This document shows positions 21,176-43,411 of a stretch of 64,000 bases of DNA, in pieces (the stretch's first letter is position 1; each line of letters starts with the position of its first letter). The stretch comes from Klebsiella phage KpLz-2_45. The stretch lies in sequence record MN871446.1; one strand, written 5' to 3'. A program made the position numbers and the translations under genes. Below the pieces are notes generated by a model, which saw nothing but the letters and a program-made list of their open reading frames with translations, did no database searches and was not told the DNA's origin.

Positions 21176-21649
21176 TTAACCCTCGAACCGATAAACAATG
21201 ATTTCAAGATTGGTATCCTTAAAAGCCCGCTCAATGTTTTGGCGGACCATTTCCCAATCACCACCGGCCAGCCCGCATCCGATTAAAGGAAAACCAACTT
21301 TTAACGGCTTCTCTTCCTTTTTGAGAATCGATGCCATTATCTTCATTGCCAGATACTGTGCGCTATAATGCGTTTTATATCCCGGATCTGAATGGTCGTG
21401 GTGAAATTGGCCACAAAGATTGAAACCCCACTGCTCATCCTTTTTGGCGGCCGTTAATTTCCCCAATCTGTTTTTGACAGGGCGTTTGTCAGCAAAGTAA
21501 GGCTCAGCTATCCAGGGAAAAGCTTCGAAGATCTTAACAGCGATGCCACTCTTTGCGATCCCAAAGCAGTTTACTTGGTGGGCAATGACGTCGACTTCCT
21601 TATTAAAGAAAGCCTCAATCAAATCCCCTTTAATTTCGGTATAGGTCAT
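21176..21649 (-). CDS. macro-domain protein of the TARG1/OARD1/DarG-macro type (ADP-ribose or O-acetyl-ADP-ribose hydrolase)
   Basis: 157 aa. KGDLIEAF...DVIAHQVNCFGIAKSGIAVKI and KVGFPLIGCGLAGGDWEMV...LEIIVY match the TARG1-family motifs (KGDLF, PRIGCGLDRL..W). Confidence 0.75.
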   Translation of the reverse strand: MTYTEIKGDLIEAFFNKEVDVIAHQVNCFGIAKSGIAVKIFEAFPWIAEPYFADKRPVKNRLGKLTAAKKDEQWGFNLCGQFHHDHSDPGYKTHYSAQYLAMKIMASILKKEEKPLKVGFPLIGCGLAGGDWEMVRQNIERAFKDTNLEIIVYRFEG

Positions 21650-21667
21650 TGCCCAAACTCTCCGTAT

Positions 21668-22282
21668 TTAATTGATGATAAACTTACAATCTTCGAGATG
21701 GTATTCTCGCCCGCCAAAACAAAGTTTCTTAACGTAGTTAGGACGAGGAAGATTAACGTTGTCCATGTAGGCATTATGGGAAACTAATGACTTGTTAATT
21801 ATTTTCCCTTTGTTGTATTCGACGAGTTTCCCTGGGTGTTCTTGGGAAAAGCCAAACCCTGAGAATTTCAACTTTACATGAGAATGAAAAGAGAGATTTC
21901 GCCAGCCTGGGAATTTCAACCCTTTAACGTGCGCGGCGATAAAACGAATCAGAGCGGTATAAATTTTACCCAGTTCGCTCACTGTCAGTCGTTCTTCTTC
22001 ATCGCCAAAACGGAAAATAATCTTGACGTCATGACCGTCCAGATTACGATGCCAGTCGATGATAAAACGAGAATAATAACCGTACAGTCCATTCTCGGCG
22101 ACAGTGCGGTTGCGATAGGTTTGTGCCGTCTCAGAGTCGTAACGATAGGCGCCTGGCTCCAAAGGCTGCCCGCGTCTGAAACCAATAAACTGTGCGAGCT
22201 GTACCGCTTGGATTAAAGTCAGGTGCACGGCGGTACCGAACTTGTTAGTGATAATAAAAATGGGACTTGAAGACGTATGCAT
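21668..22282 (-). CDS. hypothetical protein
   Basis: 204 aa, immediately downstream of the macro gene. Confidence 0.5.
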   Translation of the reverse strand: MHTSSSPIFIITNKFGTAVHLTLIQAVQLAQFIGFRRGQPLEPGAYRYDSETAQTYRNRTVAENGLYGYYSRFIIDWHRNLDGHDVKIIFRFGDEEERLTVSELGKIYTALIRFIAAHVKGLKFPGWRNLSFHSHVKLKFSGFGFSQEHPGKLVEYNKGKIINKSLVSHNAYMDNVNLPRPNYVKKLCFGGREYHLEDCKFIIN

Positions 22283-22887
22283 TAATTTGACTCCTGTAGT
22301 AGTTTGGCTATTTCAGTAACGAATTCGGAATGATCCTCTAATTTATCGCTACCGATCTCTGAACGTCTTATTTGATCATCGACATATTTAGAGATTAAGG
22401 CGTTGATTTTACCAGCTGGGCTGGAGAGAAATTCTTTTGATTCGGCGTAGTCATTATTCCAATGACGAATATAATACTCTGGAGAAAATCTTTCCGGCGT
22501 GTTGAAGTTTTGTAATTCTCCCTTTGCGAGTAACTTGAGGCTCTCTGAAAACAAAACATCAATACTGCGACCTGGGTAGTCATCCCTATAGCTAAATTGG
22601 ACGGAAATCGAAAATGTATTAATAACAGGGTGATCGCCACATCGTTCGATGACTTCCTTTTTCCAATTGGCTAAAGGCCCATTTTGTAAAGCGAATGTTA
22701 ATACATCCTCGGAAATAATCTCGTCACCATAGTGCTCTCGGTTGAAATTTTCGATTTTATCTGTTAATGACTTGAATAAATATGTTTGATTTGAACGAAT
22801 AAAAACCGGGTAATAATCATTAGTGATTAAGTCCCTTTCTTCCTGATTTAACGGCTCTTTAAGAAAACCGAGTTTTGTTCTTGACAT
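22282..22887 (-). CDS. hypothetical protein
   Basis: 201 aa; TAATG coupling. Confidence 0.5.
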   Translation of the reverse strand: MSRTKLGFLKEPLNQEERDLITNDYYPVFIRSNQTYLFKSLTDKIENFNREHYGDEIISEDVLTFALQNGPLANWKKEVIERCGDHPVINTFSISVQFSYRDDYPGRSIDVLFSESLKLLAKGELQNFNTPERFSPEYYIRHWNNDYAESKEFLSSPAGKINALISKYVDDQIRRSEIGSDKLEDHSEFVTEIAKLLQESN

Positions 22888-22897
22888 ACCCTATCCC

Positions 22898-23302
22898 CTA
22901 ATTGAAATTAAACACTAAACGCTCAACACCTTTTGATTTAAGAATATTTAATTTCTCAAACCACTCTTCTCCAAGATGTTCTCGCCAAGTCGCTGTTGTC
23001 CCTTGTCCCTCAGGTAGAGTATCGTGACCGTCTCGGCGATCCTCCACTAACTGATCGTAATCAAACTCGAACAGATATTTTGTTTCCAGTGTGTAATTAT
23101 AGTCGCAGTCGTAATTAATTGGCTCTCCTGCCTTTTCCCACTTGTAAGGTAACGGAGGGACTCCGGCGTGGTTCCGGACATCAGCAAACCAACCGTAAAT
23201 GAAATAAGATTGGAAATCAAACCAATCTACACCGCCAGAGATTCCTTCCCACTTCCCATTTTTATTTTTCTTTTCAAACCGCCCGTAAATGTAAGCGCCC
23301 AT
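22898..23302 (-). CDS. hypothetical protein
   Basis: 134 aa. Confidence 0.5.
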   Translation of the reverse strand: MGAYIYGRFEKKNKNGKWEGISGGVDWFDFQSYFIYGWFADVRNHAGVPPLPYKWEKAGEPINYDCDYNYTLETKYLFEFDYDQLVEDRRDGHDTLPEGQGTTATWREHLGEEWFEKLNILKSKGVERLVFNFN

Positions 23303-23303
23303 T

Positions 23304-23627
23304 CTATTTTTCCTCTACCTTGTAGTAAAGAGTAAGACCGTATTCGAAAGGATGTATCAAAGAGAGACTATGCCAGCAATTATCGTTTACAGGGAGCCCT
23401 TCTTCTGAGGCAGTGACTCCTTGTAGACGTTTGAGAAGACTGAAGAGAGTGTCGTTGTCGGTCTCATTCATCCACTCTTTAAGTTGAGACATCAGATTGG
23501 CGACACCGATAGTTAGCCTATAGTTAATAGTTGTAACATCCCGATCTTCTGGTGTTACTGTAACCGCCGCGACTTTTCTGTCCAGTAAGTCCATTCGAGT
23601 GTAAATAACTGCTAAATAAATTTTCAT
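23304..23627 (-). CDS. hypothetical protein (ATG with AAGGGGGA SD; track extends to a TTG at 23651)
   Basis: Strong SD 5 nt before the ATG at 23627. Confidence 0.45.
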   Translation of the reverse strand: MKIYLAVIYTRMDLLDRKVAAVTVTPEDRDVTTINYRLTIGVANLMSQLKEWMNETDNDTLFSLLKRLQGVTASEEGLPVNDNCWHSLSLIHPFEYGLTLYYKVEEK

Positions 23628-23682
23628 TAGTATCCCCCTTATTAAACACAAGGTGAGAGGAAAGACCCCTCACCTTTTTACC

Positions 23683-23997
23683 TTATTTTTGCCTGATACG
23701 GAGTTCGAGTTTAATCGATAAATCGTCACCGTCAGTTTCATCAAATGAGAGACTCCGCCAGATTCCTATTTCTCCGCCGTACGCGTAGAAATAAATCTCC
23801 CTTTCGAAAATAACGAAGAGCTTCTCAATAATCGCTGTTTCTTCATTCGTAAAAGCAAATGACGGAGAAAGCGATTCCGAACGATGTTTAGGTAGTCCCT
23901 GTAACAATTCTACGGAATCATTAAACTCCGTCGAAGTAACACCGGAGTGACGAGCGTGACCAACTACCAGACACGTTTCTAAAACGCACGTTGTCAT
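23683..23997 (-). CDS. hypothetical protein
   Basis: 104 aa; ATGA-coupled to the ThyA-family gene. Confidence 0.45.
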   Translation of the reverse strand: MTTCVLETCLVVGHARHSGVTSTEFNDSVELLQGLPKHRSESLSPSFAFTNEETAIIEKLFVIFEREIYFYAYGGEIGIWRSLSFDETDGDDLSIKLELRIRQK

Positions 23998-25373
23998 ACC
24001 GACACCTGTAATTTAATGGCTGGGTGATGCTTGTACTCAGTGAAGACGAAATCTTCATAGGTGAGTTCAAACAACCCTTTCTTCGGCATCTCTGAGTTAT
24101 AGTAGTGCTCAGAGCGAACGTAACACTCAACCGGTTTGTAAGGCTCGCGAGTTAACTGTAACTTCGCTTCCTCTAACTGATTATTGTAGATATGGACGTT
24201 AGTCAGATTACCAACCAGCTTATTGGGCGCCATACCGAGCTCATGAGCAAATGACAGCAACATGAAGGCGTAGAAAGCCTGGTTAAAGGGCTCACCGGTC
24301 ATTGTGTCACAGCTCCGCATACTGTATTTCAAACTCAGCCACTGCGTCGGTACGTGGTTCTCCGTCAACCATTCCGCTTTACGCTCAGGGGACATTTTCG
24401 GCTGGTCACAATGTTCTTCGCTGTAGCAGTCCGACATATGGTCTTCCCAAAGATCCTGGAAGTACGGGTTAGCATTGTTCCTGCACCATTTTAACCGCTC
24501 GCTCAATGTCATCTCTTCTACGTAGAACTCTACCAGGAAATGACACGGGGTAAGGCATGGTTTACCCTCCACAATATTTTCCTGCGGCGTAACCTTAACG
24601 GTCTTAGTGCGTGGTACACCATGACTTGCTAAGAACTCTTCGCAGTTATCGGTCTTGCCATGATATTCCAGGCGCGGCCAGAAAATAGCATAAAGGTCCG
24701 GACTGTGAGTTTTTAAATGTTCCCACATCTCGTCACTACTGAGAGTAACTTCTTTCGTTTCTTCCGGCATCCAAAGCGGGTTCCACGCCGAGATCAGGAT
24801 ACGACGCGATTCCGGATTGTTCCGTAGGAGATCGAGCGCATACGCGATTTGGTCAACGCCCTTCTTCTCTAATGGATTCTCGGAGAAGTTTCGCCATGCT
24901 GACCCGTAAGGGGCATTAAGGTCACCCGCTTTGTTCACGGTGACCTGGCGAGTACGCGGTACACCTTTTTCATCTAGCCAACGATGGCCGTCTTCAACAG
25001 GCTGAATGGAGATCCCTTTGCTGTAAAACTCGATGTGAGCTTCTTTGTTGTTCTCTTCAAGCCACTTCAGGCGCTCGTAGTTTTCCAGAGGAACTTCTTT
25101 CACCACGTCAGCTTCTAAACGCCACGGGTCCCAGAACTTGACATTATTCTCCACCATGGTATCGAGGTGGAGTTCCCCGTTTAACATTGCCTTGTACTCA
25201 AACCACGCAGATTTACGCGGAACGAACTTCGTGGTGAGCAGAGGGAATTCCCCGGTCGAAAGGTCGTACTTCAGTTTCGCATCAAAAATAGAAATCGTCC
25301 CCGTTCCCGTCCTGTCTCCTCGCTGACGACCGGTTTCGATAATTTCACGTAGTAGATCGAGATACTGTTTCAC
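23994..25373 (-). CDS. thymidylate-synthase-family enzyme (dUMP-specific; thymidylate synthase or dUMP hydroxymethylase) with three inserted ~55-aa repeat modules; GTG start
   Basis: MKQYLDLLREII..DRTGTGT..F..PLLTTK, RRILISAWNP, TPCHFLVEFYV (catalytic Cys), SMRSCDTMTGEPFNQAFYAF (Asn specifying uracil). 459 aa versus ~264 for E. coli ThyA. Confidence 0.85.
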   Translation of the reverse strand: MKQYLDLLREIIETGRQRGDRTGTGTISIFDAKLKYDLSTGEFPLLTTKFVPRKSAWFEYKAMLNGELHLDTMVENNVKFWDPWRLEADVVKEVPLENYERLKWLEENNKEAHIEFYSKGISIQPVEDGHRWLDEKGVPRTRQVTVNKAGDLNAPYGSAWRNFSENPLEKKGVDQIAYALDLLRNNPESRRILISAWNPLWMPEETKEVTLSSDEMWEHLKTHSPDLYAIFWPRLEYHGKTDNCEEFLASHGVPRTKTVKVTPQENIVEGKPCLTPCHFLVEFYVEEMTLSERLKWCRNNANPYFQDLWEDHMSDCYSEEHCDQPKMSPERKAEWLTENHVPTQWLSLKYSMRSCDTMTGEPFNQAFYAFMLLSFAHELGMAPNKLVGNLTNVHIYNNQLEEAKLQLTREPYKPVECYVRSEHYYNSEMPKKGLFELTYEDFVFTEYKHHPAIKLQVSV

Positions 25374-25765
25374 TATTCTTTTTCCTCTTTAGCGATTTTA
25401 TAGTGTTTAGGGGCTTTATTCACACTTACGAATTCCCCGGTAAACCAACCTTCCGATTGCTCAATGATACGGTAATAGAACATCCGGTTATACCTCGTTC
25501 CGCTCCGGGAAGTAATCAGCCGGGTTAATTCGGCCGGAAGCGAAAACGCACCAGAGAGCACTTTATACAGGTAATCTTTCCCTACCCGAAAACGAAACTC
25601 TAACGTGATAGGGTCGTATTCGAATTCGAGCGACGAATAAGGTTCAGGCTGTAAGTCCCTGAACCCTGCGGAGAGGTAACAACTCCCGCCTGGTGCAATA
25701 CGGAGATAGACCGGTTTTAGGTTAGGAAGTTTATTGGTCTTCGGAACAAACTTTTCAAAGGCCAT
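25373..25765 (-). CDS. hypothetical protein, paralog family A (shares EFEYD..T..FRF.VG and GWxxGEF with 26953-27366)
   Basis: ATG with AGAGAG SD; track starts at a TTG at 25792. Its N-terminus MAFEKFVP parallels MPFIKVP of the paralog. Confidence 0.5.
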   Translation of the reverse strand: MAFEKFVPKTNKLPNLKPVYLRIAPGGSCYLSAGFRDLQPEPYSSLEFEYDPITLEFRFRVGKDYLYKVLSGAFSLPAELTRLITSRSGTRYNRMFYYRIIEQSEGWFTGEFVSVNKAPKHYKIAKEEKE

Positions 25766-25807
25766 TTTGTTCTCTCTTATTAATTTAATCAAATAAAATC
25801 AAGACGG

Positions 25808-25840
25808 AATAAAAAGAGAGAGGGGAGTACCCTCTCTCTT
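25808..25840 (-). terminator. rho-independent terminator
   Basis: AAGAGAGAGGGG-AGTA-CCCTCTCTCTT followed by TTTTTATT on the minus strand, after macro gene 2. Confidence 0.7.
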
Positions 25841-25843
25841 CAT

Positions 25844-26440
25844 TTATCTACCTGTACGCTTATTTGTCCAAGAAGACAATCGTTTCAAATTATCTCGATG
25901 AACCAATAAATCACCCCAATTTTTCTCGGGAGAGTTATCACCAGATGTAGCTCTCTGGTAGGCATACATAATTTGCTCGTAAGAAACCTCTACAGGCATC
26001 CCGCCTGTCGCTGTGCAGAATAACGGCATAACGACGTTTTTTATCGCCCGATCTGGAGAAATACGGTTGAAATATTTTATCTGGCAAAAAGCAGCCAGCG
26101 CCGCGTGATATGCAATATCTTTACTTTTTGTCGGGCTAGGGAATCGCATCGTCGGTGCATAGCACAATTGAACTGCTTCACTCAGTGAAACGGTGATAGC
26201 CTGCCCCACTGGCATTTCTTTACCCCAGAATTGTTTGATGACCGTTTGGACAGTTTCTTGGGAGCGAGGAAACTTGTCCCTTACTACTTTGTCAAAACCA
26301 CCGTCCATAATACCAAACGAGTTACCAGGTGTAATAATGCAGTCGTAATCCTTACCCGGGACCATCGTTCTGAAATCCCGTTTTTCAAAATTTGGCCAGC
26401 TATCAAAGCCAGATAAATCAATTATCTTTAGATTAAACAT
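25844..26440 (-). CDS. macro-domain protein (second, divergent)
   Basis: 198 aa; YDCIITPGNSFGIMDGGFDKVV resembles the N-A-A-N..GGGV loop. AITVSL...CYAPTM and NVVMPLFCTATGGMP resemble the macro P-loop-like GxG motif. Confidence 0.65.
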   Translation of the reverse strand: MFNLKIIDLSGFDSWPNFEKRDFRTMVPGKDYDCIITPGNSFGIMDGGFDKVVRDKFPRSQETVQTVIKQFWGKEMPVGQAITVSLSEAVQLCYAPTMRFPSPTKSKDIAYHAALAAFCQIKYFNRISPDRAIKNVVMPLFCTATGGMPVEVSYEQIMYAYQRATSGDNSPEKNWGDLLVHRDNLKRLSSWTNKRTGR

Positions 26441-26454
26441 TTTTGGTTACCTCT

Positions 26455-26934
26455 TTAATTAAAAAAGAAATTAGGGAATGGAAGCATTGACTTTTTCTTG
26501 TAGTCGCGATAGACGATTTCAATCGTTAACTTAGCCCCTGCTTTTGAGGTGAGAAGAAGCACGTCAGAAATGTAATGCGTATTCGTTATCTTCTTTTTCC
26601 GGTAAAGGCCAAGAACTTTTTCGGACTTCTCATTAATTACGTAGTCGCTTTCCAGCCTTACTCGGATTTCTCCTTCGGAATTAGTTCGAATGGCCAGTTG
26701 GAAGTTGATAGAAAGTAGTGGCGTAGTAACCTTAACTTCCCCTTTCTCTCCGATACCCTTCTTCAGTTTTTCTTGGAAAGTGGTACTTTCTGCGTTACTT
26801 CGTAAATACTCAGTAACCTCATCGATTACTTTTGAGATTACTACAATCAAATCCCCTTCCGAAAAAACCTTTTCTTCTTGTTTCGGTTCTTCAAGTGCCT
26901 GAAATAGTTTAGCGAGCGGGTCACTGGATGCCAT
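26455..26934 (-). CDS. hypothetical protein
   Basis: 159 aa. Confidence 0.5.
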   Translation of the reverse strand: MASSDPLAKLFQALEEPKQEEKVFSEGDLIVVISKVIDEVTEYLRSNAESTTFQEKLKKGIGEKGEVKVTTPLLSINFQLAIRTNSEGEIRVRLESDYVINEKSEKVLGLYRKKKITNTHYISDVLLLTSKAGAKLTIEIVYRDYKKKSMLPFPNFFFN

Positions 26935-26952
26935 ATAATTTCCCCTAGTTAC

Positions 26953-27366
26953 CTATTTAACCCAAGTGTCAACCGGGCGAATAAAACTTTTGAATTCGCC
27001 GTACCACCACCCGTCTTCTTTTAACACGGGTTTAAAGTACGCCGATCGTCTGGCAAAACCTTTTGTGTGTTGGCCGTCTGCCAAGAGTTGTTTATTCCAG
27101 ATTGTACGTAATACTGTTGTCGGGAGAAGAAACGTACCACTCCCTGACAGCGGACGATCGAAATAAGGGCCAACCTGAAAACGAAAATGACCTGTTTCAG
27201 TATCGTATTCAAAATCAATCGTATCGTCGCCAATGTCAAATTGATTCAAAAATGTTTTCGATAAAGAACAATCGGAATCCCGAGAGAGGCGTACGTACTC
27301 TACGTGATAACTGCGTTCCCGGTGAATATCTTTCACTTGTGAATAAGGGACTTTGATAAAGGGCAT
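26953..27366 (-). CDS. hypothetical protein, paralog family A
   Basis: 137 aa; AAGGAG SD; paralogous to 25373-25765. Confidence 0.5.
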   Translation of the reverse strand: MPFIKVPYSQVKDIHRERSYHVEYVRLSRDSDCSLSKTFLNQFDIGDDTIDFEYDTETGHFRFQVGPYFDRPLSGSGTFLLPTTVLRTIWNKQLLADGQHTKGFARRSAYFKPVLKEDGWWYGEFKSFIRPVDTWVK

Positions 27367-27418
27367 TCACTACTCCTTGAAAAATAAAAAGACGGAGGAA
27401 TAACCCCCGCCTGATAAA

Positions 27419-27781
27419 TTAACAAATGACCGCGTCTACAAACAGCGCCGACATCGAACGGACTGGCGTAAGCGACTCTTTTAACGTAGGGAAGAATTTA
27501 CCTTCCGAACTGATGAATAAACACGCGCAGTCTACTTGACCCCGATTTATCCGCTGCGCCATTGCTAAGGTATTCGGTAACGGAATGACCTTGATCGAAG
27601 CGATCAATTTCGGTCCGAGGTAATCAGTAATGACCTCTTTGAATTTCGCGCGAGTCCGCGGGTCACCGTATACCTTTACGGTCTTACCCTTCATCAGGTT
27701 ATTCGCAATGAAAGCGGAATAATGCAACATCGCAGATTCGTTGAAGGTGCCTAACACTTTAATGGACTGGATTCGTTTCAT
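27419..27781 (-). CDS. hypothetical protein (ATGA-coupled start; track alternative at 27796)
   Basis: ATG overlapping the upstream TGA. Confidence 0.45.
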   Translation of the reverse strand: MKRIQSIKVLGTFNESAMLHYSAFIANNLMKGKTVKVYGDPRTRAKFKEVITDYLGPKLIASIKVIPLPNTLAMAQRINRGQVDCACLFISSEGKFFPTLKESLTPVRSMSALFVDAVIC

Positions 27782-28323
27782 TTTGTAAAAACCCAATAAA
27801 CGTCGTAAAATGGAATAGCATGGATTCCCGAGGGGAGGTTGTCGATCTCTTCGATATCTTTCATATCGAGTAAATTGACAACTAACCCGGTGGATAATAA
27901 TCGCTTGAGGCTATACGCCACCGCACCAAGCGGAATTTCGAAGGTAATCGCCTTTTGACATTTGAAATGACTGACCAGTTTGCGCGGATTATCCGCTAAC
28001 CGTTCGAGATAATCTTTATACGTTTCCCCGTCGTGACCACGCAGCGGCCACTGCCAGATAATTCCGTCTGCGGCTACTATCGCCTCCCCTCGAAAACGAT
28101 AAGGATTTTGATATTGCTCCCATTTGAGATACCCCGGTTGGTACATAGAGCCGTGATCAAGGATCTCCAATTCTTTCCCTGCTATGGCTTCACGAATCAT
28201 TTCTGCAAGGGCCGGTATGAGAACAGTTTCCCCTGCGGCATTTTTACCAAGAGCGACCTTCTCTCCTTCCACTAAACCGTAGACGTCAGCCGCGTAAGCG
28301 CCCCGTTCAAACTTAAATTTCAT
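27778..28323 (-). CDS. hypothetical protein, translationally coupled downstream of Tpt1
   Basis: 181 aa; ATGA overlap with Tpt1 stop; Gly-rich KVALGKNAAGETV segment. Confidence 0.5.
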   Translation of the reverse strand: MKFKFERGAYAADVYGLVEGEKVALGKNAAGETVLIPALAEMIREAIAGKELEILDHGSMYQPGYLKWEQYQNPYRFRGEAIVAADGIIWQWPLRGHDGETYKDYLERLADNPRKLVSHFKCQKAITFEIPLGAVAYSLKRLLSTGLVVNLLDMKDIEEIDNLPSGIHAIPFYDVYWVFTK

Positions 28324-28883: not shown

Positions 28884-28887
28884 ATTA

Positions 28888-29415
28888 TTACCCTTGGAGC
28901 GTATAACCTGCGCCGTAAACTTCGATCAATTGATCCCAAATAGGATCTACCCAAACGGGTACTTTGAACCCAAGATGTTCTTCTTCACGGTATAACCAGC
29001 CTTTCTTCTCGGTGAAAGAGAAGAAGTTATCTCTGCTCTTTTTAAGGTTATCGTAATAGGCAAACATTTTGTGGTCGGTCGCTTCTGCTTTATATTTCGC
29101 ATAAAGCCATTTACGGTATTGCGCTTCGATTTCAGTATATTCCACTGGCTCATACCCAGAAAGAATCGTCACACCACCCGTTGAATTCTCCGGGTAGCGC
29201 TGGAGTCCATCCCAAATAGCGGGTAGGGGGATAAAATCCCCTAATTCCCAAATATCGAACATGGGTGTCAGAACAGAGCGGGGTTCGTCCGGGCAAACAC
29301 TGAACGTTGCATTGCGGAACGCAGCTTCTTTATTTTCAGCGGCGATTAATAACACTGTCGCTTCTTTAGATTCAGGGAGATCGTAAAACTTCTCACTCGC
29401 CAGAAACAGTTTCAT
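28888..29415 (-). CDS. hypothetical protein between Tpt1 and HD hydrolase
   Basis: 175 aa; AGGGGAA SD. Confidence 0.5.
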   Translation of the reverse strand: MKLFLASEKFYDLPESKEATVLLIAAENKEAAFRNATFSVCPDEPRSVLTPMFDIWELGDFIPLPAIWDGLQRYPENSTGGVTILSGYEPVEYTEIEAQYRKWLYAKYKAEATDHKMFAYYDNLKKSRDNFFSFTEKKGWLYREEEHLGFKVPVWVDPIWDQLIEVYGAGYTLQG

Positions 29416-31276: not shown

Positions 31277-31300
31277 TTATTTCTCCTTTTATTTTTCCTC

Positions 31301-31357: not shown

Positions 31358-31385
31358 CTTCCTCTCTCCCGAAGGAGAGAGGAAG
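31358..31385 (-). terminator. terminator-like hairpin
   Basis: CTTCCTCTCTCC-CGAA-GGAGAGAGGAAG, T-rich tract downstream. Confidence 0.55.
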
Positions 31386-31392
31386 CGTCAAA

Positions 31393-34184: not shown

Positions 34185-34185
34185 G

Positions 34186-34674: not shown

Positions 34675-34691
34675 TTTCGTCCCCTCCGGAA

Positions 34692-35096: not shown

Positions 35097-35097
35097 T

Positions 35098-36015: not shown

Positions 36016-36025
36016 CTTTTTTTCC

Positions 36026-36382
36026 TCAGTGCAGTTTTCTTTTATCTTCTTCGGTCAACCTATACCGCATCTTGATAGGTGGGTCATTATTGAATAAGGC
36101 GTCTAGCGTCACCGTTGTTTCGTCTTTATCCGTGACCCGAACCCATGTGAAAATATATTCCGAATCAGACTCGTTGATATATTTTAACACTCGCGCCATA
36201 AAGGGCATTTCAAGGTCTTCGTCACAAAACATCGGATTGATGTAAACTCCTATCGAAAGAGGGTCCTTTAAACGGGATAACAGGTAAACTTTCCCTATTT
36301 CCATTCCGGACGGACCGCCTTCCACGGGGTAAAAGTTGACATCGCCAACGTTGGATTTTAACACCATAATTGCTTCGCGCAT
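36026..36382 (-). CDS. hypothetical protein
   Basis: 118 aa; GAAAGGAGGG SD. Confidence 0.5.
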   Translation of the reverse strand: MREAIMVLKSNVGDVNFYPVEGGPSGMEIGKVYLLSRLKDPLSIGVYINPMFCDEDLEMPFMARVLKYINESDSEYIFTWVRVTDKDETTVTLDALFNNDPPIKMRYRLTEEDKRKLH

Positions 36383-36420
36383 AAATTAAACCCTCCTTTC
36401 ATTCAGAGCAATTGACGAGA

Positions 36421-36450
36421 AAATAAAAAAGGAGAGGCAAAAGCCTCTCC
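36421..36450 (-). terminator. rho-independent terminator
   Basis: AGGAGAGGC-AAAA-GCCTCTCCT followed by TTTTTTATTTT. Confidence 0.7.
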
Positions 36451-36456
36451 TCTCAT

Positions 36457-36744
36457 TTAATGTCTTTTTTGCCGTATCCAAAGATTCTTAGTTGGAATCC
36501 AGATAGCAACAATTTCCCCATGAACATGTTTAACGCGCGCCCCTTCTGGCCATCTGGGAATTACTTTTGTAATCTCTTCAACTTCATGATACCAAAGACG
36601 ATCAGGCAAAGTAAAAGCCAAAACACGCAAGTAACCGTACTTCATGGAACTTTCTTTACCGTCTATGACCATTTCGATCCACTTCCCGGAATGTTCATAA
36701 CTTTCAAGAATTCCTATTTTTTCTACGGAATCAGAATCGCTCAT
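36457..36744 (-). CDS. hypothetical protein
   Basis: 95 aa; AGAGGTG SD. Confidence 0.45.
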   Translation of the reverse strand: MSDSDSVEKIGILESYEHSGKWIEMVIDGKESSMKYGYLRVLAFTLPDRLWYHEVEEITKVIPRWPEGARVKHVHGEIVAIWIPTKNLWIRQKRH

Positions 36745-36756
36745 TTACACCTCTGG

Positions 36757-37197
36757 CTATTTTTCAGGCGGTAGGCCGTTATTAAAACGGTTCGCTTCCA
36801 TCACCGGGAGATTCGCTTCTGTCGGGACGTAGATCACTTGGTTCTTAGTTTGCTGTAAGCTATCTACCCAAAGGTAACGGAGATACGCTTCGTTGTTCTT
36901 CAAGCTGTCACCAATGATCTTGTTCGCCTTGGCGACACCGCCTGCACGAATAACCTCTGCCTCCGCCAAACTTTTAGCGGACTCTTTCTTAGCCTCTGCT
37001 TCCTGTACGGCGATCTGACGATCCTGCGTGGCTTTCATCAGAGCGGCTTTCCCCGCCATCCCCTGCTGCCAAACATTGTAGTACGGGCACCCCGCCATCA
37101 GCAGCACTATAAACGCAACAATGCCGATGGCCGCCCATTTACCCACCTTCTTTAATAACGACTTTACGTCGAAATCATTATCAGCGTAACGATTCAT
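36757..37197 (-). CDS. membrane-anchored protein with SPFH/band-7 (HflC/prohibitin) C-terminal-like coiled region
   Basis: 146 aa; N-terminal TM, then AEAEVIRAGGVAKANKIIGDSL..N..YLRYLWV...VIYVP...LPV resembling the C-terminal part of the SPFH family. Confidence 0.5.
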   Translation of the reverse strand: MNRYADNDFDVKSLLKKVGKWAAIGIVAFIVLLMAGCPYYNVWQQGMAGKAALMKATQDRQIAVQEAEAKKESAKSLAEAEVIRAGGVAKANKIIGDSLKNNEAYLRYLWVDSLQQTKNQVIYVPTEANLPVMEANRFNNGLPPEK

Positions 37198-37227
37198 TTC
37201 TATTTCCTATTTTTTAAACCAGTAAAC

Positions 37228-37917
37228 TTATTTGTTGGTTTTGGTGATATACCACTTCCAAAGGCCGTAGAAAGCATTCATCAAGAATACTGCCCACTGT
37301 GCCACCTGCGCCCATGAACCCGGTTGATTAAGCGCCGGGATCACCCACAGATAAATCGTGACGCAGTTGATAATGATCCAGAGAATCCATTGTTCTGGCT
37401 GCTGCTTGATCATCATCCACATGGCGATGAGCGATGCGACTAAGCAGAACGCGTCTAATGCAGGAAACGGATCCTGCGTAGTTTTCAGGTATTCGGTCAG
37501 GCCATACCAGAAGATAACCCCAACAACCAGATAAGTTATCACGTCACGTAAAGTGATCGTTTTAACCGCTACGTCAGCTTTGGCTGGAGTTTTGCCCAGG
37601 TCTTTCGTCCAGTAATAAATACCGATAAACTGCATGGGAAGGTAAATAGCGTTCAACGCCGCATTGGCATAAAGGCCGGTATTGTACGAAACAATACCGT
37701 AGGTAATTACGCCAATCGTCCCCCAGTAATAATTAGAGACGCGACCCTTCGCCACCAGAATCACGCAGACGACGTTAGTCAGCGCTGCCGTGAATTCTAA
37801 CGGACTGGCTTGCCAGCTCCCTAATCCGACGACGATTAACGCTACGATCAGCCAAAAGTATTCGACTTTCTTCCAGTGCGCAAAGTCAGTGAAAGTTTTC
37901 ATTACCAATGAGTTCAT
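37228..37917 (-). CDS. pnuC: nicotinamide riboside transporter PnuC
   Basis: 229 aa. Collinear with E. coli PnuC: multi-TM profile, WxxVE, NVVCVILVAKG, IYYW, ILWIIIN-type conserved stretches. AAGGA SD. Confidence 0.85.
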   Translation of the reverse strand: MNSLVMKTFTDFAHWKKVEYFWLIVALIVVGLGSWQASPLEFTAALTNVVCVILVAKGRVSNYYWGTIGVITYGIVSYNTGLYANAALNAIYLPMQFIGIYYWTKDLGKTPAKADVAVKTITLRDVITYLVVGVIFWYGLTEYLKTTQDPFPALDAFCLVASLIAMWMMIKQQPEQWILWIIINCVTIYLWVIPALNQPGSWAQVAQWAVFLMNAFYGLWKWYITKTNK

Positions 37918-38061
37918 CTATTAAATCCTTCGAGAAAAGTTGAGATGTAACTTGCGGATCTCAGATTAAGTTTGTCGCCAAATACAGCGTGGTAAAAGCG
38001 ATAGTTATCGCCTAACATCCGCTTTATTTTGCGTTGCGTACGCCGTTGTTGAGTCATGAAA

Positions 38062-39273
38062 TCATCCACCCCAATCAGCGGGGTTCTGATGAGAACCAGC
38101 CTCGATGCTTTCTACCATACTCCAATCTTTATCAAAGTTACCACCGCTGGCAGCAGGAGGGAACTTATTTGGAATTTCTGGAGCGCTCTGGCCGGCAGTG
38201 CCGTTACCGGATAACAAGTTATCAACCGCTTCACGTGATTGATCTAAACGACCTTTGTAAGAGTCCCCTTTAATGAATACAGTGCGCCCCCATGGTGTTT
38301 GGTTTTTAAATTCCCAAAGCATTTGTTGGAAGAGACTCTCTGTTTTCTCGCGGTCAGGATTCAGCCGCAGACCATCATCGACCCATGGTACTTCCGGCGA
38401 AAGAATCAACACGAGATCGTAATGCTCTTCAGCCGCGATAGCAGAAACAATAGGGTTAGGTTTACCCTCGTACAGCCGATGGTAATATTCCGTAATGAAG
38501 GCGTTCGTATCGATGAAACAGAGTCGATTAGAAGTACGTAATGCTTCCTCCTCCAGCTCTTTGTGACGATACGCAATCAACGGGTAGTCAGAACTACGGA
38601 GAGTCGCTTCCGAACCCGCTAAGACCGTTTCACAGTACGTACGGCCGTACTCTTCAACCCAGCTGGTATTGTAGAGTTTGGCGAGGTTCTTGACGAGGGA
38701 ACTTTTCCCAGAACTCTCAACGCCTAATACGACCACCCGCAAACAATAATCTTTACGGACAATGCTCGGGAGATATTCCCAATGGTCGTAAAGGTTTTCA
38801 CGGATCATCGTGGCGGAGATGGGGACGCGGGTACGGTTACTGTCAACGATAACGTGTTCTACAAAACCGAGGTGCGTTTTGTATTTTTCATCGTAATCCA
38901 GCTCGCTACTGAAAATAGCAATGCTCTGCGCCTGACTGTGATTAGCTGCCAGTCTACCTGCCTCGTTGAAAATCTTAGCGCCGAGCAGAGCAGCGTATTC
39001 TTTCCAGCCGTTCGGGTATTCCGGTACAGAAGCCTCATCAATGAAATCGATCGTGACGTGCTCTGTATCCGCGTAAGTCTGTTGCAGCCAGCGCAGACGA
39101 TTCTTGAAATTGAGTACCTTTTGGTCTCGTGGCGATTGTTTATCCAGCCAACGTTGGTCGTGGGAAAGAATGACGAGGACATGCTTAGACTGCACAGCAG
39201 CCTCTGTGATTAAGTTGATGTGCCCCAACGTAAGGGGTGCGAATTTACCGATTACTACGCCTAAGTCAAACAT
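38062..39273 (-). CDS. nadR: NadR-type bifunctional NMN adenylyltransferase / ribosylnicotinamide kinase. It lacks the N-terminal HTH repressor domain and has a ~50-aa C-terminal Gly/Ser-rich extension.
   Basis: GKFAPLTLGHINLI (NMNAT H-x-G-H), LRWLQQT, YPNGW, ISATMIRENLYDHWEYLP, VVVLGVESSGKSSLVKNLA (RNK P-loop), RLCFIDTNAFIT, YDLVLILSPEVPWVDDGLR match E. coli NadR throughout. Confidence 0.9.
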   Translation of the reverse strand: MFDLGVVIGKFAPLTLGHINLITEAAVQSKHVLVILSHDQRWLDKQSPRDQKVLNFKNRLRWLQQTYADTEHVTIDFIDEASVPEYPNGWKEYAALLGAKIFNEAGRLAANHSQAQSIAIFSSELDYDEKYKTHLGFVEHVIVDSNRTRVPISATMIRENLYDHWEYLPSIVRKDYCLRVVVLGVESSGKSSLVKNLAKLYNTSWVEEYGRTYCETVLAGSEATLRSSDYPLIAYRHKELEEEALRTSNRLCFIDTNAFITEYYHRLYEGKPNPIVSAIAAEEHYDLVLILSPEVPWVDDGLRLNPDREKTESLFQQMLWEFKNQTPWGRTVFIKGDSYKGRLDQSREAVDNLLSGNGTAGQSAPEIPNKFPPAASGGNFDKDWSMVESIEAGSHQNPADWGG

Positions 39274-39291
39274 CTGATATACCCTTCCTTA

Positions 39292-39606
39292 TTAGCCTAC
39301 GAAATGGTGATAAAGACGATGCAAGTCCCAGCCCTTATGATTCATCGCATTGAATCCCTGCTCATTCTTGACTACCACCTTGACGGCGTAGTCTTCCATC
39401 AGAAGGAAATCCCGCCCTGACTTAGAATGAATATCGCCATCGTAGACCGGACCATCTACAATCAGCTGGTTCATCGTGCCGATAACATGGCCAACGTCAT
39501 TCCGCTCGAGTAACATCGTCACGGTTTTCTCTAACTCGGCAGCGTACGCCATATCTACTTCTTCATCGGCATCTAGACCACAAATCTCAATAATCTGATT
39601 CAACAT
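39292..39606 (-). CDS. hypothetical protein
   Basis: 104 aa; AAAGGAAA SD. Confidence 0.45.
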   Translation of the reverse strand: MLNQIIEICGLDADEEVDMAYAAELEKTVTMLLERNDVGHVIGTMNQLIVDGPVYDGDIHSKSGRDFLLMEDYAVKVVVKNEQGFNAMNHKGWDLHRLYHHFVG

Positions 39607-39619
39607 GTTTTAGTTTCCT

Positions 39620-40012
39620 TTATTCGGTCCAGGGACGGAAAGTCCATGTACGAACTTTGTATTTACGATTATCAAAACGACGGCTACGGATATAGACCTC
39701 TACAGTTAAACTCGTTGCCGTTGGGGTGAGAAAAACAACCAGGTGTGCGGGTTCGTACTGGTACACCTCCGCTAAAGAAACAAACGCCGAGAACGGCAGA
39801 CTTTTCTTTTCAGCGGAACGGAGATTCCGATAGAGCAGTTTCACTGCGCGTTTAGCGAACACCTGGTCGTGGTAACTGGCGTGACGGAGACTTTTCCGAT
39901 TAGCGTTTAACTTCATCAGAAACAAACGCTTCTCCGCCCATGGGAGGTAATAGCTCAAACTGATCCCTGCCCCAGAAAACAATATTGCTGATAGTGTTTT
40001 CATTAACGCCAT
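39620..40012 (-). CDS. hypothetical protein
   Basis: 130 aa; AGGAG SD. Confidence 0.45.
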   Translation of the reverse strand: MALMKTLSAILFSGAGISLSYYLPWAEKRLFLMKLNANRKSLRHASYHDQVFAKRAVKLLYRNLRSAEKKSLPFSAFVSLAEVYQYEPAHLVVFLTPTATSLTVEVYIRSRRFDNRKYKVRTWTFRPWTE

Positions 40013-40025
40013 TAATTTTCTTCTC

Positions 40026-40268
40026 CTATCGTATATCGTTGTTGTCTTTCTTGAACGGGTTATAGATGTTCAAGTACCAAACCAACCCGACGAATATTCC
40101 GATGCAGATAAAAGGCCATGCAATACCAATTGTCAAAACCTTCCAGATCTCCATACGGAGGACGACGCGGCGATACTTGGGGTTAACAATTGGTTTCCAA
40201 ACAATCATCAGAAACACAACCGCCCAGAGCGCCCCGCCGGCAGATATCAACATTCCCGCTGTACTCAT
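40026..40268 (-). CDS. small two-TM membrane protein
   Basis: 80 aa; ATGA coupling. Confidence 0.45.
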   Translation of the reverse strand: MSTAGMLISAGGALWAVVFLMIVWKPIVNPKYRRVVLRMEIWKVLTIGIAWPFICIGIFVGLVWYLNIYNPFKKDNNDIR

Positions 40269-40579
40269 GACTTCACACCTACCGTTAAAAGGAGGGTTCG
40301 CAGGTAATCCGCATCCGGGTTGAGTACAACACTGAACCGACTGTTGTCGTGAATCAGAATCAAATCACCAGGATAAAGAACTGCGGTGTGATTTCCGTCG
40401 TACACGAAATTCAAGGTCGCGTAATCTAACGCGTCTTGTTCAGGAAACCGTGGCGTGACGGGTGGTTCATTCAGGATATCGGCGGCGGGGTCGCCTGCCA
40501 GGATACGTAAGAACCCGTTGTACTCAGTCGGAACAATAGGGAGTTCCACATATTTCAGTTCAATCACGTGCGTTAACAT
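40265..40579 (-). CDS. hypothetical protein
   Basis: 104 aa. Confidence 0.45.
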   Translation of the reverse strand: MLTHVIELKYVELPIVPTEYNGFLRILAGDPAADILNEPPVTPRFPEQDALDYATLNFVYDGNHTAVLYPGDLILIHDNSRFSVVLNPDADYLRTLLLTVGVKS

Positions 40580-40596
40580 GATTCACCTCTTTATCG

Positions 40597-41091
40597 TTAG
40601 TTATTAAAGGATCGAAAGAATTCGTTGCCGTGTTTAACCCCGTCGAGAATGTCGTTACAGAGCTTTGGTATTTGTCTGATAACTAGGATATCCATAATCT
40701 TGAAATCGGCACAGTGGATAGCCCGGAGTTTTTCATAAGCGAGATCACCTTTAAGTGAACGCGTAATGCCGAGGAGATCACAGGTGTTTGTAACAGGGCA
40801 AAGAGAAAACCAACCTTGCTTTGCGTAGGTGTCAAAGTCCATGATTAGTTTTCTTAGACCGACTTCTTTAAACGGGTCATTACCCGCTGAGGGCCAGTTG
40901 ATAGCCCTGGTTAACGGGTGAAGCGAATTTAACCAGAGAACGAAAGGGTCCGACTCTTCATAGGTCGCGTTTTCAGGAGCAAGATTACTCAGCGCTGTTC
41001 CGTTACCAATGCCGCTAAATTGTTTCTGATTTTCCATCGTTACCTTATCCACACCCGTCGCAAAGACTTTACCAAAAAATTTAATAAGCAT
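40597..41091 (-). CDS. hypothetical protein
   Basis: 164 aa. Confidence 0.5.
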   Translation of the reverse strand: MLIKFFGKVFATGVDKVTMENQKQFSGIGNGTALSNLAPENATYEESDPFVLWLNSLHPLTRAINWPSAGNDPFKEVGLRKLIMDFDTYAKQGWFSLCPVTNTCDLLGITRSLKGDLAYEKLRAIHCADFKIMDILVIRQIPKLCNDILDGVKHGNEFFRSFNN

Positions 41092-41351
41092 TAGAGCCCC
41101 TCGGTTGAGAACATTTTTAACCCGTGTCGATAGTGAACGCGGTTTTTCAATAGATGACCCATCTCAGCACATTTTTTCAGCCTGGTCGCAAGTAACGTTT
41201 TCCCCATCCGGCGTGGCGCTGAAATTGTGAGATTACTGTCTAAATCATCAAAATAGGGTTTGGATACTTTAATGAGGAAAATATGGTTGGCGGTGACGGA
41301 ACTTCTTTTCAGTTTCCCTCTCTGTATTTTCAAACATTTTTTCAAGGCCAT
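41091..41351 (-). CDS. hypothetical protein
   Basis: 86 aa; 1-nt overlap. Confidence 0.4.
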   Translation of the reverse strand: MALKKCLKIQRGKLKRSSVTANHIFLIKVSKPYFDDLDSNLTISAPRRMGKTLLATRLKKCAEMGHLLKNRVHYRHGLKMFSTEGL

Positions 41352-41360
41352 AGCGTCTCC

Positions 41361-41486
41361 TTATTCTAGTGAATCATAGAGCTTCTTACCAATAGCAAAC
41401 AGTATCTTAAGTATCGCACCGGAGATGTACCAAGCACCACCGTAACAGAAGATTACGAAGATAACGATTTTCCATTCTACTGGCAT
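41361..41486 (-). CDS. small hydrophobic peptide MPVEWKIVIFVIFCYGGAWYISGAILKILFAIGKKLYDSLE (41 aa; not in ORF track)
   Basis: GGAGGTG SD 4 nt before the ATG; single predicted TM; fills an otherwise empty 190-nt gap. Confidence 0.4.
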   Translation of the reverse strand: MPVEWKIVIFVIFCYGGAWYISGAILKILFAIGKKLYDSLE

Positions 41487-41548
41487 AGTACACCTCCGGT
41501 ATTTAAGAAATAATAACTGAGAGAGGGCATTATCCCTCTCTCAGTCGG

Positions 41549-42175
41549 TCAATATAAGTTTTCGGAATAAAGTTCGTTGTTAATAATGATAACGTTGGGA
41601 CGTGTGGCGTTAATTTGTCCGGCGTGTTTCGCAATGACAAACGCGTCTTCTCGATTCCAATAACGATCCCATTGATCGATAAACCCTTGTCCGCTACCGT
41701 GCGGGAAATTGACAGGTTCTTCACCTGCCTTTGCTCGGAGGCGTTTGATCTCATCGCCGAGGATATGCTGTAGAAGCGAACCGTGGCGCGAAGAAGGAAT
41801 GACCAAAGGCTCTTCTTCTTTTAACCCCAGTGCTTCTCCGAGTCTTTCATTCGGTTTCACTGTTCCCCAGATATTTGCCGCTGAAACGATACGGACCTGA
41901 ACAAAGATACCTGGTGACGGCTCGTGTACGCAAATAGCCGGGAGGGTTGCTCTTTGTTCTTCAGTGAGTACTTCGTCATCAGCGTAGCCTTCCTCTTTAC
42001 GGAAATGAGATTCGGCTAATTGACACGACGCGAGGATATCCATGGCCAATTTGCGAGCAGAGTCGATATCAAACTCGTACTGCCCGCTCTTTAACTGAAT
42101 AACCTTATCATCGCGAATGTCGTAATCGCGGATATCTACTCGACTGTAGTCACCTTCATGAATCATTTTAGTCAT
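41549..42175 (-). CDS. hypothetical protein
   Basis: 208 aa. Confidence 0.5.
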   Translation of the reverse strand: MTKMIHEGDYSRVDIRDYDIRDDKVIQLKSGQYEFDIDSARKLAMDILASCQLAESHFRKEEGYADDEVLTEEQRATLPAICVHEPSPGIFVQVRIVSAANIWGTVKPNERLGEALGLKEEEPLVIPSSRHGSLLQHILGDEIKRLRAKAGEEPVNFPHGSGQGFIDQWDRYWNREDAFVIAKHAGQINATRPNVIIINNELYSENLY

Positions 42176-42458
42176 TAAGATTCTTCCTCAAGGAAAGTTT
42201 CTGTCCCAGTTTGAGGGTGCGGATCGGAAGTTCGATTGACCCACACGCATTGGCGATAATGGTTCCTGTCGGTGTTCCGACCACCGCAGTGAATTCATCG
42301 GGATGTTTCTCAATCAACCCGATGCTGGCGGAGAACAGATCTTCATCGCGCGCGAGTAGATGTAAATCAGTTTCACTTACGATGTCGCCGATGTAAGGGT
42401 AATTTGGATTGCGGTCATAGGCGACAGTTGGAGACTGCTTGACTTTCTTTGCCGACAT
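42168..42458 (-). CDS. hypothetical protein
   Basis: 96 aa; 8-nt overlap. Confidence 0.45.
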   Translation of the reverse strand: MSAKKVKQSPTVAYDRNPNYPYIGDIVSETDLHLLARDEDLFSASIGLIEKHPDEFTAVVGTPTGTIIANACGSIELPIRTLKLGQKLSLRKNLND

Positions 42459-42886
42459 TATTCCTTCCCTCCGGAGATAACCGAAAATGGGTTTGGTTTC
42501 TTAGTTTCTTTTACCGGTTCAGCGGGTTCGTCAGAACGCCCGTCAGCAGTGATGAGTTTTTGCGGGAGTTGAATCATCTGTTCCGGGTTATCAGGGTTAA
42601 ACATCTGAATGACGGACCCCCACGGGAAAGTGTCTGAGGCGAGTTTACCCCCGAAACGCCCTTCGAAGAACAACCCTTCGTCCAGTGAAGAAAGCTGACA
42701 GGAATGCGGAGAAACATTCAGTGTCAATACGTGATAACCCTGCATGTTAGGTACCGGTTTGACATATTGACGAAGAATGGGATTCACGGTGATTTCGGTA
42801 CCAAAGACCGTGATGTAAATACGACTGCCATTATCGATAAGCCAGCTATAACCTGCATCAAACAACGCTTTATTTAAAGAAGACAT
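42458..42886 (-). CDS. hypothetical protein
   Basis: 142 aa; first gene after promoter motif #7. Confidence 0.5.
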   Translation of the reverse strand: MSSLNKALFDAGYSWLIDNGSRIYITVFGTEITVNPILRQYVKPVPNMQGYHVLTLNVSPHSCQLSSLDEGLFFEGRFGGKLASDTFPWGSVIQMFNPDNPEQMIQLPQKLITADGRSDEPAEPVKETKKPNPFSVISGGKE

Positions 42887-42915
42887 GTGTTACTCCCGAT
42901 TGTTATTTAATTACC

Positions 42916-42943
42916 TTCACTCAGGTGATATAGATTTTAAAAG
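42916..42943 (-). promoter_or_regulatory. conserved promoter-like motif copy 7
   Basis: Overlaps the stop of 42917-43411; upstream of 42458-42886. Confidence 0.5.
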
Positions 42944-43411
42944 CCGTCGAGTTTCTTCCCAAAACTCCACTAACCATTCTCCGCTTTTAGGCGTAACAAC
43001 TTTAACGTCGTCTTCCCAGACACGCGCCCCTTTCTCCATTCGCCAATTACCGAAAACGTAGTAATGGGTAAAAGGTAGGGTTGAATTGACCAGCGCTTGG
43101 TATTGGTGTTTGTAAGTATTCAATTTCGCCAGATTAGCAGCTTTGATAATCGAGAGGAAATCGGGATGATGAACCACTTCCAGTTTCTTCCCAAATGCTT
43201 TCGCCTCGTTACCGTACAAGCCTCTGAGGTATTGGTGTTTAAAACCGGTTTTTGCGTAATACCAAAACCCTTCCATACTTTCAAAGTTTCCGTACTCAGG
43301 GTGAATGAAAGGTGTCTTTGGAAAGTGAGAGAGAAAGAACCCGAGACGGTTCTTGGACTTAGAGTAAATGTTGATGTGGTCAATACCGTCATTGTTTGGG
43401 TTCAAAGTCAT
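42917..43411 (-). CDS. hypothetical protein; possible NADAR (YbiA/DUF1768-like) ADP-ribose-processing domain (tentative)
   Basis: 164 aa. INIYSKS..LGFFLSHFP and EGFWYYAKTGF loosely parallel YbiA INFYS..YGDFSNFA and EHYFQAQKF. C-terminal LVEFWEETRRLL parallels LGYLLMELREQL. By-eye similarity only. Confidence 0.45.
   Translation of the reverse strand: MTLNPNNDGIDHINIYSKSKNRLGFFLSHFPKTPFIHPEYGNFESMEGFWYYAKTGFKHQYLRGLYGNEAKAFGKKLEVVHHPDFLSIIKAANLAKLNTYKHQYQALVNSTLPFTHYYVFGNWRMEKGARVWEDDVKVVTPKSGEWLVEFWEETRRLLKSISPE

Follow-up and report, generated by a model that had tools for sequence, protein, structure and literature searches.

Do seven genes spread over 22 kb of Klebsiella phage KpLz-2_45 (MN871446.1) act together against host defenses that ADP-ribosylate phage molecules or deplete NAD+, or are they separate modules that share one arm of the genome? 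The genes lie between positions 21,176 and 43,411 of the 64,000-nucleotide stretch analyzed here (the window) and encode two macrodomain proteins (Macro 1 and Macro 2), a Tpt1/KptA RNA 2'-phosphotransferase, an HD-superfamily phosphohydrolase, a PnuC-NadR pair, and a NADAR-like protein. An initial annotation had read them as a single counter-defense toolkit in which every member uses or makes NAD+ or processes ADP-ribose. All seven are complete open reading frames (ORFs) on the minus strand (Table 1), and six of the seven stand as NAD+/ADP-ribose genes, the HD gene being the one that does not.

The accessory arm that holds these genes is probably a set of four independent modules of known kinds and not one system. 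The modules would be a NARP3 pair (PnuC-NadR), a macrodomain of the Tk.4/AdfM family (Macro 1), a NADAR protein related to AdfN, and a group formed by Tpt1, the HD enzyme, and the gene between them, ORF175, together with Macro 2.

Table 1. Features discussed in the text, with positions in the window unless a relative is named.
Feature	Coordinates	Strand	Basis
Macro 1, macrodomain protein, 157 amino acids, T4 Tk.4/PHROG 335 family	21176..21649	-	phmmer, PHROG, BLASTP
Macro 2, Macro_2/Appr-1''-pase-type macrodomain, 198 amino acids	25844..26440	-	Pfam, phmmer, PHROG
Tpt1/KptA RNA 2'-phosphotransferase, 187 amino acids	28320..28883	-	Pfam PTS_2-RNA
ORF175, conserved partner of HD and Tpt1	28888..29415	-	Gene neighborhood
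HD-superfamily phosphohydrolase, class-I phosphodiesterase-like, 242 amino acids	29393..30121	-	Family profile, invariant residues
PnuC-type nicotinamide riboside transporter, NARP3 component	37228..37917	-	Pfam NMN_transporter
NadR-like NMN adenylyltransferase and ribosylnicotinamide kinase, no helix-turn-helix domain, NARP3 component	38062..39273	-	Pfam CTP_transf_like, AAA_28
Divergent NADAR-fold protein, 164 amino acids, homolog of T4 gp30.3/AdfN	42917..43411	-	Profile alignment
Intergenic hairpins with T-run	20169-20196, 23650-23676, 25814-25840, 27390-27412	-	9- to 13-bp stems
Intergenic hairpins with T-run	31358-31385, 36427-36454, 41515-41546, 45407-45430	-	9- to 13-bp stems
NAD+/ADP-ribose/RNA-end genes outside the window	MN871449 199146-201787, 295353-295796; MJ359 20189-20785		Annotation/homology

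Organization of the accessory arm

The seven genes are located in a ~45-kb accessory arm flanked by virion and tail-spike genes, and all credible ORFs between window positions 78 and 49584 are on the minus strand. The stretch from 21 to 44 kb is 99% identical to that of "Serratia phage KpXa_1" (MN871449; host Klebsiella pneumoniae), 94 to 95% identical to Klebsiella phages LPKP23 and MJ359 (94.5% for MJ359), and ~80% identical over partial coverage to vB_KpM_FBKp24 (Maaswegvirus). Gene order is syntenic among the Maaswegvirus-like relatives, and the genomes of MN871449, LPKP23, MJ359, and FBKp24 are all ~300 kb. The annotation of MJ359 includes a nuclear shell protein (chimallin), the tubulin PhuZ, and split multisubunit RNA polymerases, which identifies the phage of the window as a nucleus-forming jumbo phage.

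Family and fold assignments and gene neighborhoods were established directly, and conserved neighbors are limited to PnuC-NadR and ORF175-HD-Tpt1. Eight intergenic hairpins divide the arm into at least five blocks, placing the NADAR-like gene, NadR-PnuC, HD-Tpt1, Macro 2, and Macro 1 each in a different one, so that the single unit described in the initial annotation is not what the layout suggests. This hairpin family, found in the gaps between gene blocks, likely represents terminators or RNA-processing sites. Terminators are annotated in FBKp24 at the gap equivalent to the hairpin at 36 kb and one gene further downstream, at the 3' end of an AAA ATPase gene. A ninth hairpin of the same kind lies at 50768-50802, and the whole set has 9- to 15-bp stems with purine-rich GAGAGG/GGAGAG 5' arms. 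A scan for sigma-70 promoters gave no enrichment, a result that is uninformative here, since the phage brings RNA polymerases of its own.

Clustering was assessed by permutations on the MJ359 gene order using nine NAD+/ADP-ribose genes. Counted singly, six of the nine fell within 41 genes, with a P value of 0.005, or 0.02 if placement was limited to accessory blocks. Counting linked genes as units reduced the figure to four of six, with P values of 0.06 to 0.12. Clustering of NAD+/ADP-ribose genes is therefore weak and barely above chance. The initial annotation had also counted about 20 small unknown ORFs as possible missing partners. The actual number of ORFs interleaved among the seven genes is ~43, none of which contained a Pfam domain, and a Pfam search of 10 larger ORFs between 1 and 18 kb likewise recovered no related domain.

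Further members lie outside both the 22-kb stretch and the window. MJ359 and MN871449 carry an adjacent pair of Prs-like and Nampt-like genes ~4 kb beyond window position 1; this adjacency is the operational signature of NARP1 (bioRxiv 10.1101/2024.02.11.579819), and the pair is referred to here as NARP1-like. A third macrodomain gene, kpMJ359_103, is described below. A DHH phosphoesterase, another gene product labeled "phosphohydrolase," and a polynucleotide kinase are encoded in close relatives as well. With all these extra genes, the NAD+/ADP-ribose/RNA-end toolkit spans the whole genome.

PnuC-NadR, Macro 1, and the NADAR-like protein

Enzymatic activities and defense targets proposed for these proteins are drawn by analogy from homologs tested in other phages. 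The PnuC and NadR calls of the initial annotation were confirmed by Pfam domains and motifs. PnuC contains multiple hydrophobic segments and matches NMN_transporter over profile positions 1 to 174 of 175 (E = 3e-43). NadR has CTP_transf_like (residues 7 to 159) and AAA_28 (residues 179 to 323) domains, with TLGH at residue 15 and the Walker A sequence GVESSGKS at residue 184. Because its NMN adenylyltransferase (NMNAT) domain begins at residue 7, NadR has no helix-turn-helix (HTH) domain. It is ~62% identical to NadR of T5-like Salmonella and Escherichia phages, and a Gly/Ser/Pro-rich C-terminal tail of ~50 residues (~355 to 403) is uncovered by the T5-like alignments.

The two genes are on the same strand, 145 nucleotides apart, and are neighbors in all relatives, with one or two variable ORFs inserted. 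The gap (window 37914-38069; L001 19363-20247) holds a 51-amino-acid ORF here and in FBKp24, a 156-amino-acid ORF in LPKP23, and ORFs of 156 and 133 amino acids in MJ359. In other phages, PnuC and an HTH-less NadR constitute NARP3 (Bas30_87/Bas30_86), which overcomes Sir2-HerA and DSR1 and is common in T5-like Salmonella and Escherichia phages (Yan et al. 2026, PMC13464706). By sequence, the window pair is of the NARP3 type: PnuC lies beside an HTH-less NadR with NMNAT and ribosylnicotinamide kinase domains on the same strand. It differs in being carried by a chimallivirus jumbo phage, in the ORF between the genes, and in the extra NadR tail. By analogy, PnuC would import nicotinamide riboside, and NadR would phosphorylate and adenylylate it to NAD+, offsetting defenses that deplete NAD+.

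Macro 1 had been annotated as a TARG1/DarG-type macrodomain, which holds for its broad class. Sequence comparisons place it in the class containing SCO6735, TARG1, and DarG: it scored 20 bits against Pfam Macro, slightly under the cutoff of 22 bits, and phmmer matches in the PDB were to SCO6735 (E = 6e-6), TARG1 (1e-5), DarG (1e-4), and also BT1257, with E values ranging to 3e-3. It belongs to the family of T4 Tk.4, with which it shares 29% identity over the full length by BLASTP (E = 9e-15), and it matches PHROG 335 at E = 1e-41. N27, an FNLxxQF motif, a GCGxxxG loop, and the longer pattern FNLxxQF...PG...YSA are common to Macro 1 and Tk.4. In the phmmer alignment, the position of TARG1 Lys84 is occupied by Gln81 in Macro 1, and Tk.4 also has Gln there.

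The name AdfM has been used in two senses, for T4 Tk.4 in the HIDEN-SEQ preprint (bioRxiv 10.1101/2025.11.20.689424), where deletion of tk.4 makes T4 sensitive to DarTG2, and for PhiKZ gp104, a nuclear DarG2-like protein (Morgan et al. 2026, PMC13309987). Macro 1 resembles the first as a full-length homolog sharing the Tk.4 motifs and differs from the second. Its identity to gp104 is only 22% (E = 0.03), and the TK(D)xWRxPS lysine motif (TKxxW) of gp104 and DarG is absent from Macro 1. On sequence, the true PhiKZ gp104/AdfM ortholog of the lineage is kpMJ359_103, which lies outside the window, is 34% identical to gp104 (E = 5e-26), has the motif ATKDHWRYPS, and is also present in MN871449. Classification of Macro 1 as a PhiKZ-type AdfM was therefore rejected. 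The converse idea, that Macro 1 is not an anti-DarT protein for want of the TARG1 lysine, was dropped as well, since Tk.4 has the same Gln-containing motif and is anti-DarTG2 by genetics. Macro 1 is predicted to strip DarT2-type ADP-ribose from phage DNA.

The NADAR-like assignment, tentative at first, gained support. A profile of the protein's family aligned with T4 gp30.3, the NADAR protein AdfN that counters DarTG1 (PMC11257639), at a probability of 94.5% and E = 8e-8 in hhalign, placing the protein in the NADAR fold. E47 and K54 align with the AdfN catalytic residues E36 and K43. The Pfam NADAR model did not match the protein at E values up to 0.01, and the family profile reached only 8bau in the PDB, at E = 0.18. 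The family is represented in 514 phage records and corresponds to PHROG 652, annotated as of unknown function. Within the AdfN/NADAR superfamily (Schuller et al. 2023, PMC11543638; PMC11257639) it is separate and widespread, with a motif of its own, LPFTHYY. Phage NADARs are reported to use a His as their third catalytic residue (PMC11543638), which the His of this motif fits. The window protein differs from recognized members in that Pfam NADAR does not match and in that the Lys is not conserved family-wide. One homolog (P0007) carries an N-terminal DUF4326 domain. By analogy with AdfN, the protein is predicted to take ADP-ribose off guanine, the DarT1-type modification.

ORF175, HD, Tpt1, and Macro 2

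Tpt1 matches Pfam PTS_2-RNA (PF01885) over profile positions 4 to 176 of 177 (E = 3e-43), as initially annotated. It retains R16, H17, R64, and R120, which we take to be the Arg-His-Arg-Arg catalytic tetrad of Tpt1. The reading frames of ORF175, HD, and Tpt1 overlap or abut, and the 5' end of ORF175 shares 23 nucleotides with the 3' end of HD. ORF175 has no Pfam or PHROG match and only 8 close homologs. AlphaFold2 modeling was mediocre, with a predicted local distance difference test score of 72 reached in one of five models, and a Foldseek search against the PDB gave no fold match. A PHROG search of the Tpt1 neighbors matched none of them.

The HD protein alone has no Pfam match, and a full-library search with it recovered 87 relatives. 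Y45, H46, H50, H87, D88, and D160, which include the metal-binding residues, are invariant in 84 HD relatives, and H91 is invariant among eight close homologs. Pfam HD was found in 43 of the 84, PDEase_I in 41, and an N-terminal DHFR fusion in 3, and the family profile matched PDE10A at E = 1.4e-11. These residues and matches show that the protein is a genuine HD enzyme and that its type is that of the class-I phosphodiesterases, in agreement with the phosphohydrolase call. The accompanying claim that every member of the set uses NAD+ or ADP-ribose is not supported for this gene, a generic phosphodiesterase-like hydrolase whose relatives are DHFR-fused or beside ThyA; nothing was found to link its substrate to NAD+ or ADP-ribose beyond the Tpt1 neighborhood.

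ORF175, HD, and Tpt1 are adjacent or nearly so in related loci where HD identity is 68% (L012), 57% (L011), 47% (L013), and 41% (L017). The order in L017 is an ORF175 homolog (47% identity), HD, a 144-amino-acid ORF, Tpt1 (60%), an RNA ligase with a faint PF09414 match and a KAHG motif, and a Macro 2 homolog (44%), an arrangement that points to RNA repair and disposal of ADP-ribose phosphate by-products. More distant HD homologs have other neighbors: ThyA, with an RNA ligase 1.6 kb off (L020); an MFS transporter (L019); a cREC gene next to a DHFR-fused HD homolog (L018); and ThyA within 6 kb (L021). In L021, a 268-kb metagenomic phage contig, the HD homolog comes directly after a Pfam Tad3 (PF25185) gene (4619-5956, 6001-6750). 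Together, the DHFR fusions and the proximity of ThyA, Tad3, or a transporter suggest that HD may serve nucleotide metabolism. A locus search with a narrow HD alignment recovered only FBKp24.

The Macro 2 gene is 1.9 kb downstream of ORF175-HD-Tpt1, and the call of a second macrodomain is probably right. The protein matches yeast Appr-1''-pase YMR087W (1njr) over 140 residues (31 to 171; E = 9e-6), PHROG 2613 (E = 2e-32), and part of Pfam Macro_2 (E = 4e-5; 23.5 bits versus a cutoff of 27), and homologs in other phages are annotated as Appr-1-p processing or macro domain proteins. In MJ359 and FBKp24 the gene is labeled "tail protein" (L001 7330-7926; L009 14590-15189). This label seems to have spread from names of the "tail assembly-like" kind (PHROG 14717), whereas the protein itself is probably a macrodomain. 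The phage macrodomain Adpp dephosphorylates ADP-ribose-1''-phosphate and thereby enables NARP1 to act against aRES (bioRxiv 10.64898/2026.01.28.702374). Macro 2 resembles Adpp, Poa1p, and YMR087W through the YMR087W match and through its partial, below-cutoff match to Macro_2, a Pfam family that, with two others, is used to call Adpp. Adpp is recognized by a position within two genes of an Adps-Namat/NARP1 pair, whereas Macro 2 is ~30 kb from the NARP1-like pair and its L017 homolog is near Tpt1 and beside the RNA ligase. In the proposed module, Tpt1 would use NAD+ to remove RNA 2'-phosphates, and Macro 2 is predicted to dephosphorylate the by-product ADP-ribose-1''-phosphate. For HD, several roles may be considered.

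One tentative possibility is that Tpt1, HD, ORF175, and Macro 2 form an RNA-repair cassette. HD would open a cyclic phosphate (RNA 2',3'>P or ADP-ribose 1'',2''>P), Tpt1 would remove the junction 2'-phosphate, and Macro 2 would turn ADP-ribose-1''-phosphate into ADP-ribose, recyclable to NAD+ by the NARP1-like pair. The overlapping genes, the linkage kept in L011, L012, L013, and L017 with the adjacent ligase and Macro 2 in L017, the ligase near the L020 homolog, the cREC gene beside the L018 fusion, and the phosphodiesterase-like character of HD fit this scheme, as does the published KptA/2H/Macro logic of RNA repair (PMC9503650). In the scheme of Iyer et al., KptA is paired with 2H phosphoesterases and RNA ligases, while the conserved Tpt1 neighbors in the window are the phosphodiesterase-like HD enzyme and ORF175. 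The lineage also differs from that KptA-centered repair in that neither an RNA ligase nor a 2H enzyme was found in it. FBKp24 RtcB and the L017 ligase each have no homolog in the window or MJ359, and no KxDG motif occurs in the ORFs located between 1 and 20 kb of the window. Moreover, L011, L012, L013, and perhaps L017 are syntenic with the window, so the linkage may be merely inherited; ORF175 has no fold match; and the more distant HD homologs sit beside ThyA, Tad3, or an MFS transporter.

Another reading places HD in deoxynucleotide metabolism, where it might hydrolyze dNTPs or dNMPs (deoxynucleoside tri- or monophosphates) for thymidylate synthesis or base modification, with its proximity to Tpt1 incidental. 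This reading, also a minority one, has in its favor the three DHFR-HD fusions, a ThyA gene right beside the HD homolog of L020 and another no more than 6 kb from that of L021, and, in the window, a ThyA homolog 4 kb away and a dUTPase gene in the same arm. It does not account for the tight, overlapping HD-ORF175-Tpt1 arrangement that persists to 41% identity, and the closest solved relatives of HD are cyclic-nucleotide phosphodiesterases, not dNTPases.

A bolder proposal is that ORF175-HD-Tpt1, joined in L017 by the RNA ligase and Macro 2, is an undescribed repair cassette in which HD replaces the 2H cyclic phosphodiesterase and the NAD+ loop is closed within one phage: ADP-ribose 1'',2''>P would be opened, Macro 2 would dephosphorylate the product, and the NARP1-like pair would convert ADP-ribose to NAD+. 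We regard this as unlikely. Nothing else in the arm but ORF175-HD-Tpt1, however, has a chance of being new.

Counter-defense, metabolism, and precedent

Judged by homology, the counter-defense reading of the initial annotation is reasonable for the NARP3-type pair, the NADAR-like protein, and Macro 1; Tpt1, HD, and Macro 2 fit RNA repair and by-product disposal better than action against DarT. Several points weigh against the four-module arrangement as set out here. The window and MJ359 have no recognizable RNA ligase, which leaves Tpt1 with no obvious phage-made substrate as far as sequence can tell. Macro 2 stands outside the NARP1-like operon, at the distance given above. Macro 1 lacks the TARG1/DarG catalytic Lys, making action on thymine-ADP-ribose hard to explain from its sequence, and the Lys of the Glu/Lys pair varies across the wider NADAR-like family. 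Finally, the hairpins may not terminate transcription by phage RNA polymerases.

It seems improbable that the NAD+ genes serve not counter-defense but metabolism, by boosting the supply for reactions of the phage that use NAD+. In favor are the NAD+ consumption of Tpt1, the heavy biosynthetic demands of a jumbo phage, and the presence of ThyA and dUTPase in the same arm, but homologs of NARP3 and NARP1 act specifically against NAD+-depleting defenses, with little cost in other settings (PMC13464706; bioRxiv 10.1101/2024.02.11.579819). It is very unlikely that all seven genes work in coordination as a single system against defenses that ADP-ribosylate or that deplete NAD+, with missing partners among the small ORFs: their single strand within 22 kb, single-gene clustering, and syntenic order speak for it, and against it stand the five or more hairpin-delimited blocks, the weaker clustering at the level of units, the lack of related domains among the interleaved ORFs, the L017 arrangement, where the Tpt1 block adjoins the block found here at 40 to 43 kb with no NadR or PnuC in between, the further members 25 to 100 kb away, homologs that act singly or as pairs in other phages (PMC13464706, PMC11257639), and the independent occurrence of the modules in unrelated phages.

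The initial annotation took this combination of genes to be new. Iyer et al. (2021, PMC7824862; 2022, PMC9503650) had described KptA, Macro, NADAR, and NadR co-occurring in jumbo phages as standalone early genes, with proposed roles in countering NAD+ depletion and ADP-ribose derivatives and in RNA repair, and the window co-encodes the same families as their viral NAD+-ADP-ribose network. The family of each module has already been described in other phages, and several have been tested there (NARP3, AdfM, AdfN, and Adpp, in experiments from 2024 to 2026). The arm is a rich but ordinary example, with no new mechanism. Its value is that one lineage combines NARP3 and a NARP1-like pair with macrodomains of two types that have been linked to anti-DarT2 activity, a NADAR related to AdfN, and an Appr-1''-pase-type macrodomain. 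The lineage is therefore a useful natural setting in which to ask how the modules divide their labor, which ones need to get into the phage nucleus, and to what extent K. pneumoniae host range depends on them.

Several other genes of the arm deserve mention. The thymidylate synthase homolog (window 23994-25373) is 459 amino acids long, whereas the Pfam Thymidylat_synt profile has 266 positions; the match is split over two segments (E = 1e-65), which indicates large insertions, and relatives are 405 to 407 amino acids in L012 and L013 and 282 amino acids in L020. A 442-amino-acid ORF (window 15967-17295) with no Pfam match occupies the position of RtcB in FBKp24 (L009 935-2179), to which it is unrelated. 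Two AAA+ ATPases are encoded in the same arm (window 13422-14738 and 18722-20101), the second with a BCS1 N-terminal domain.

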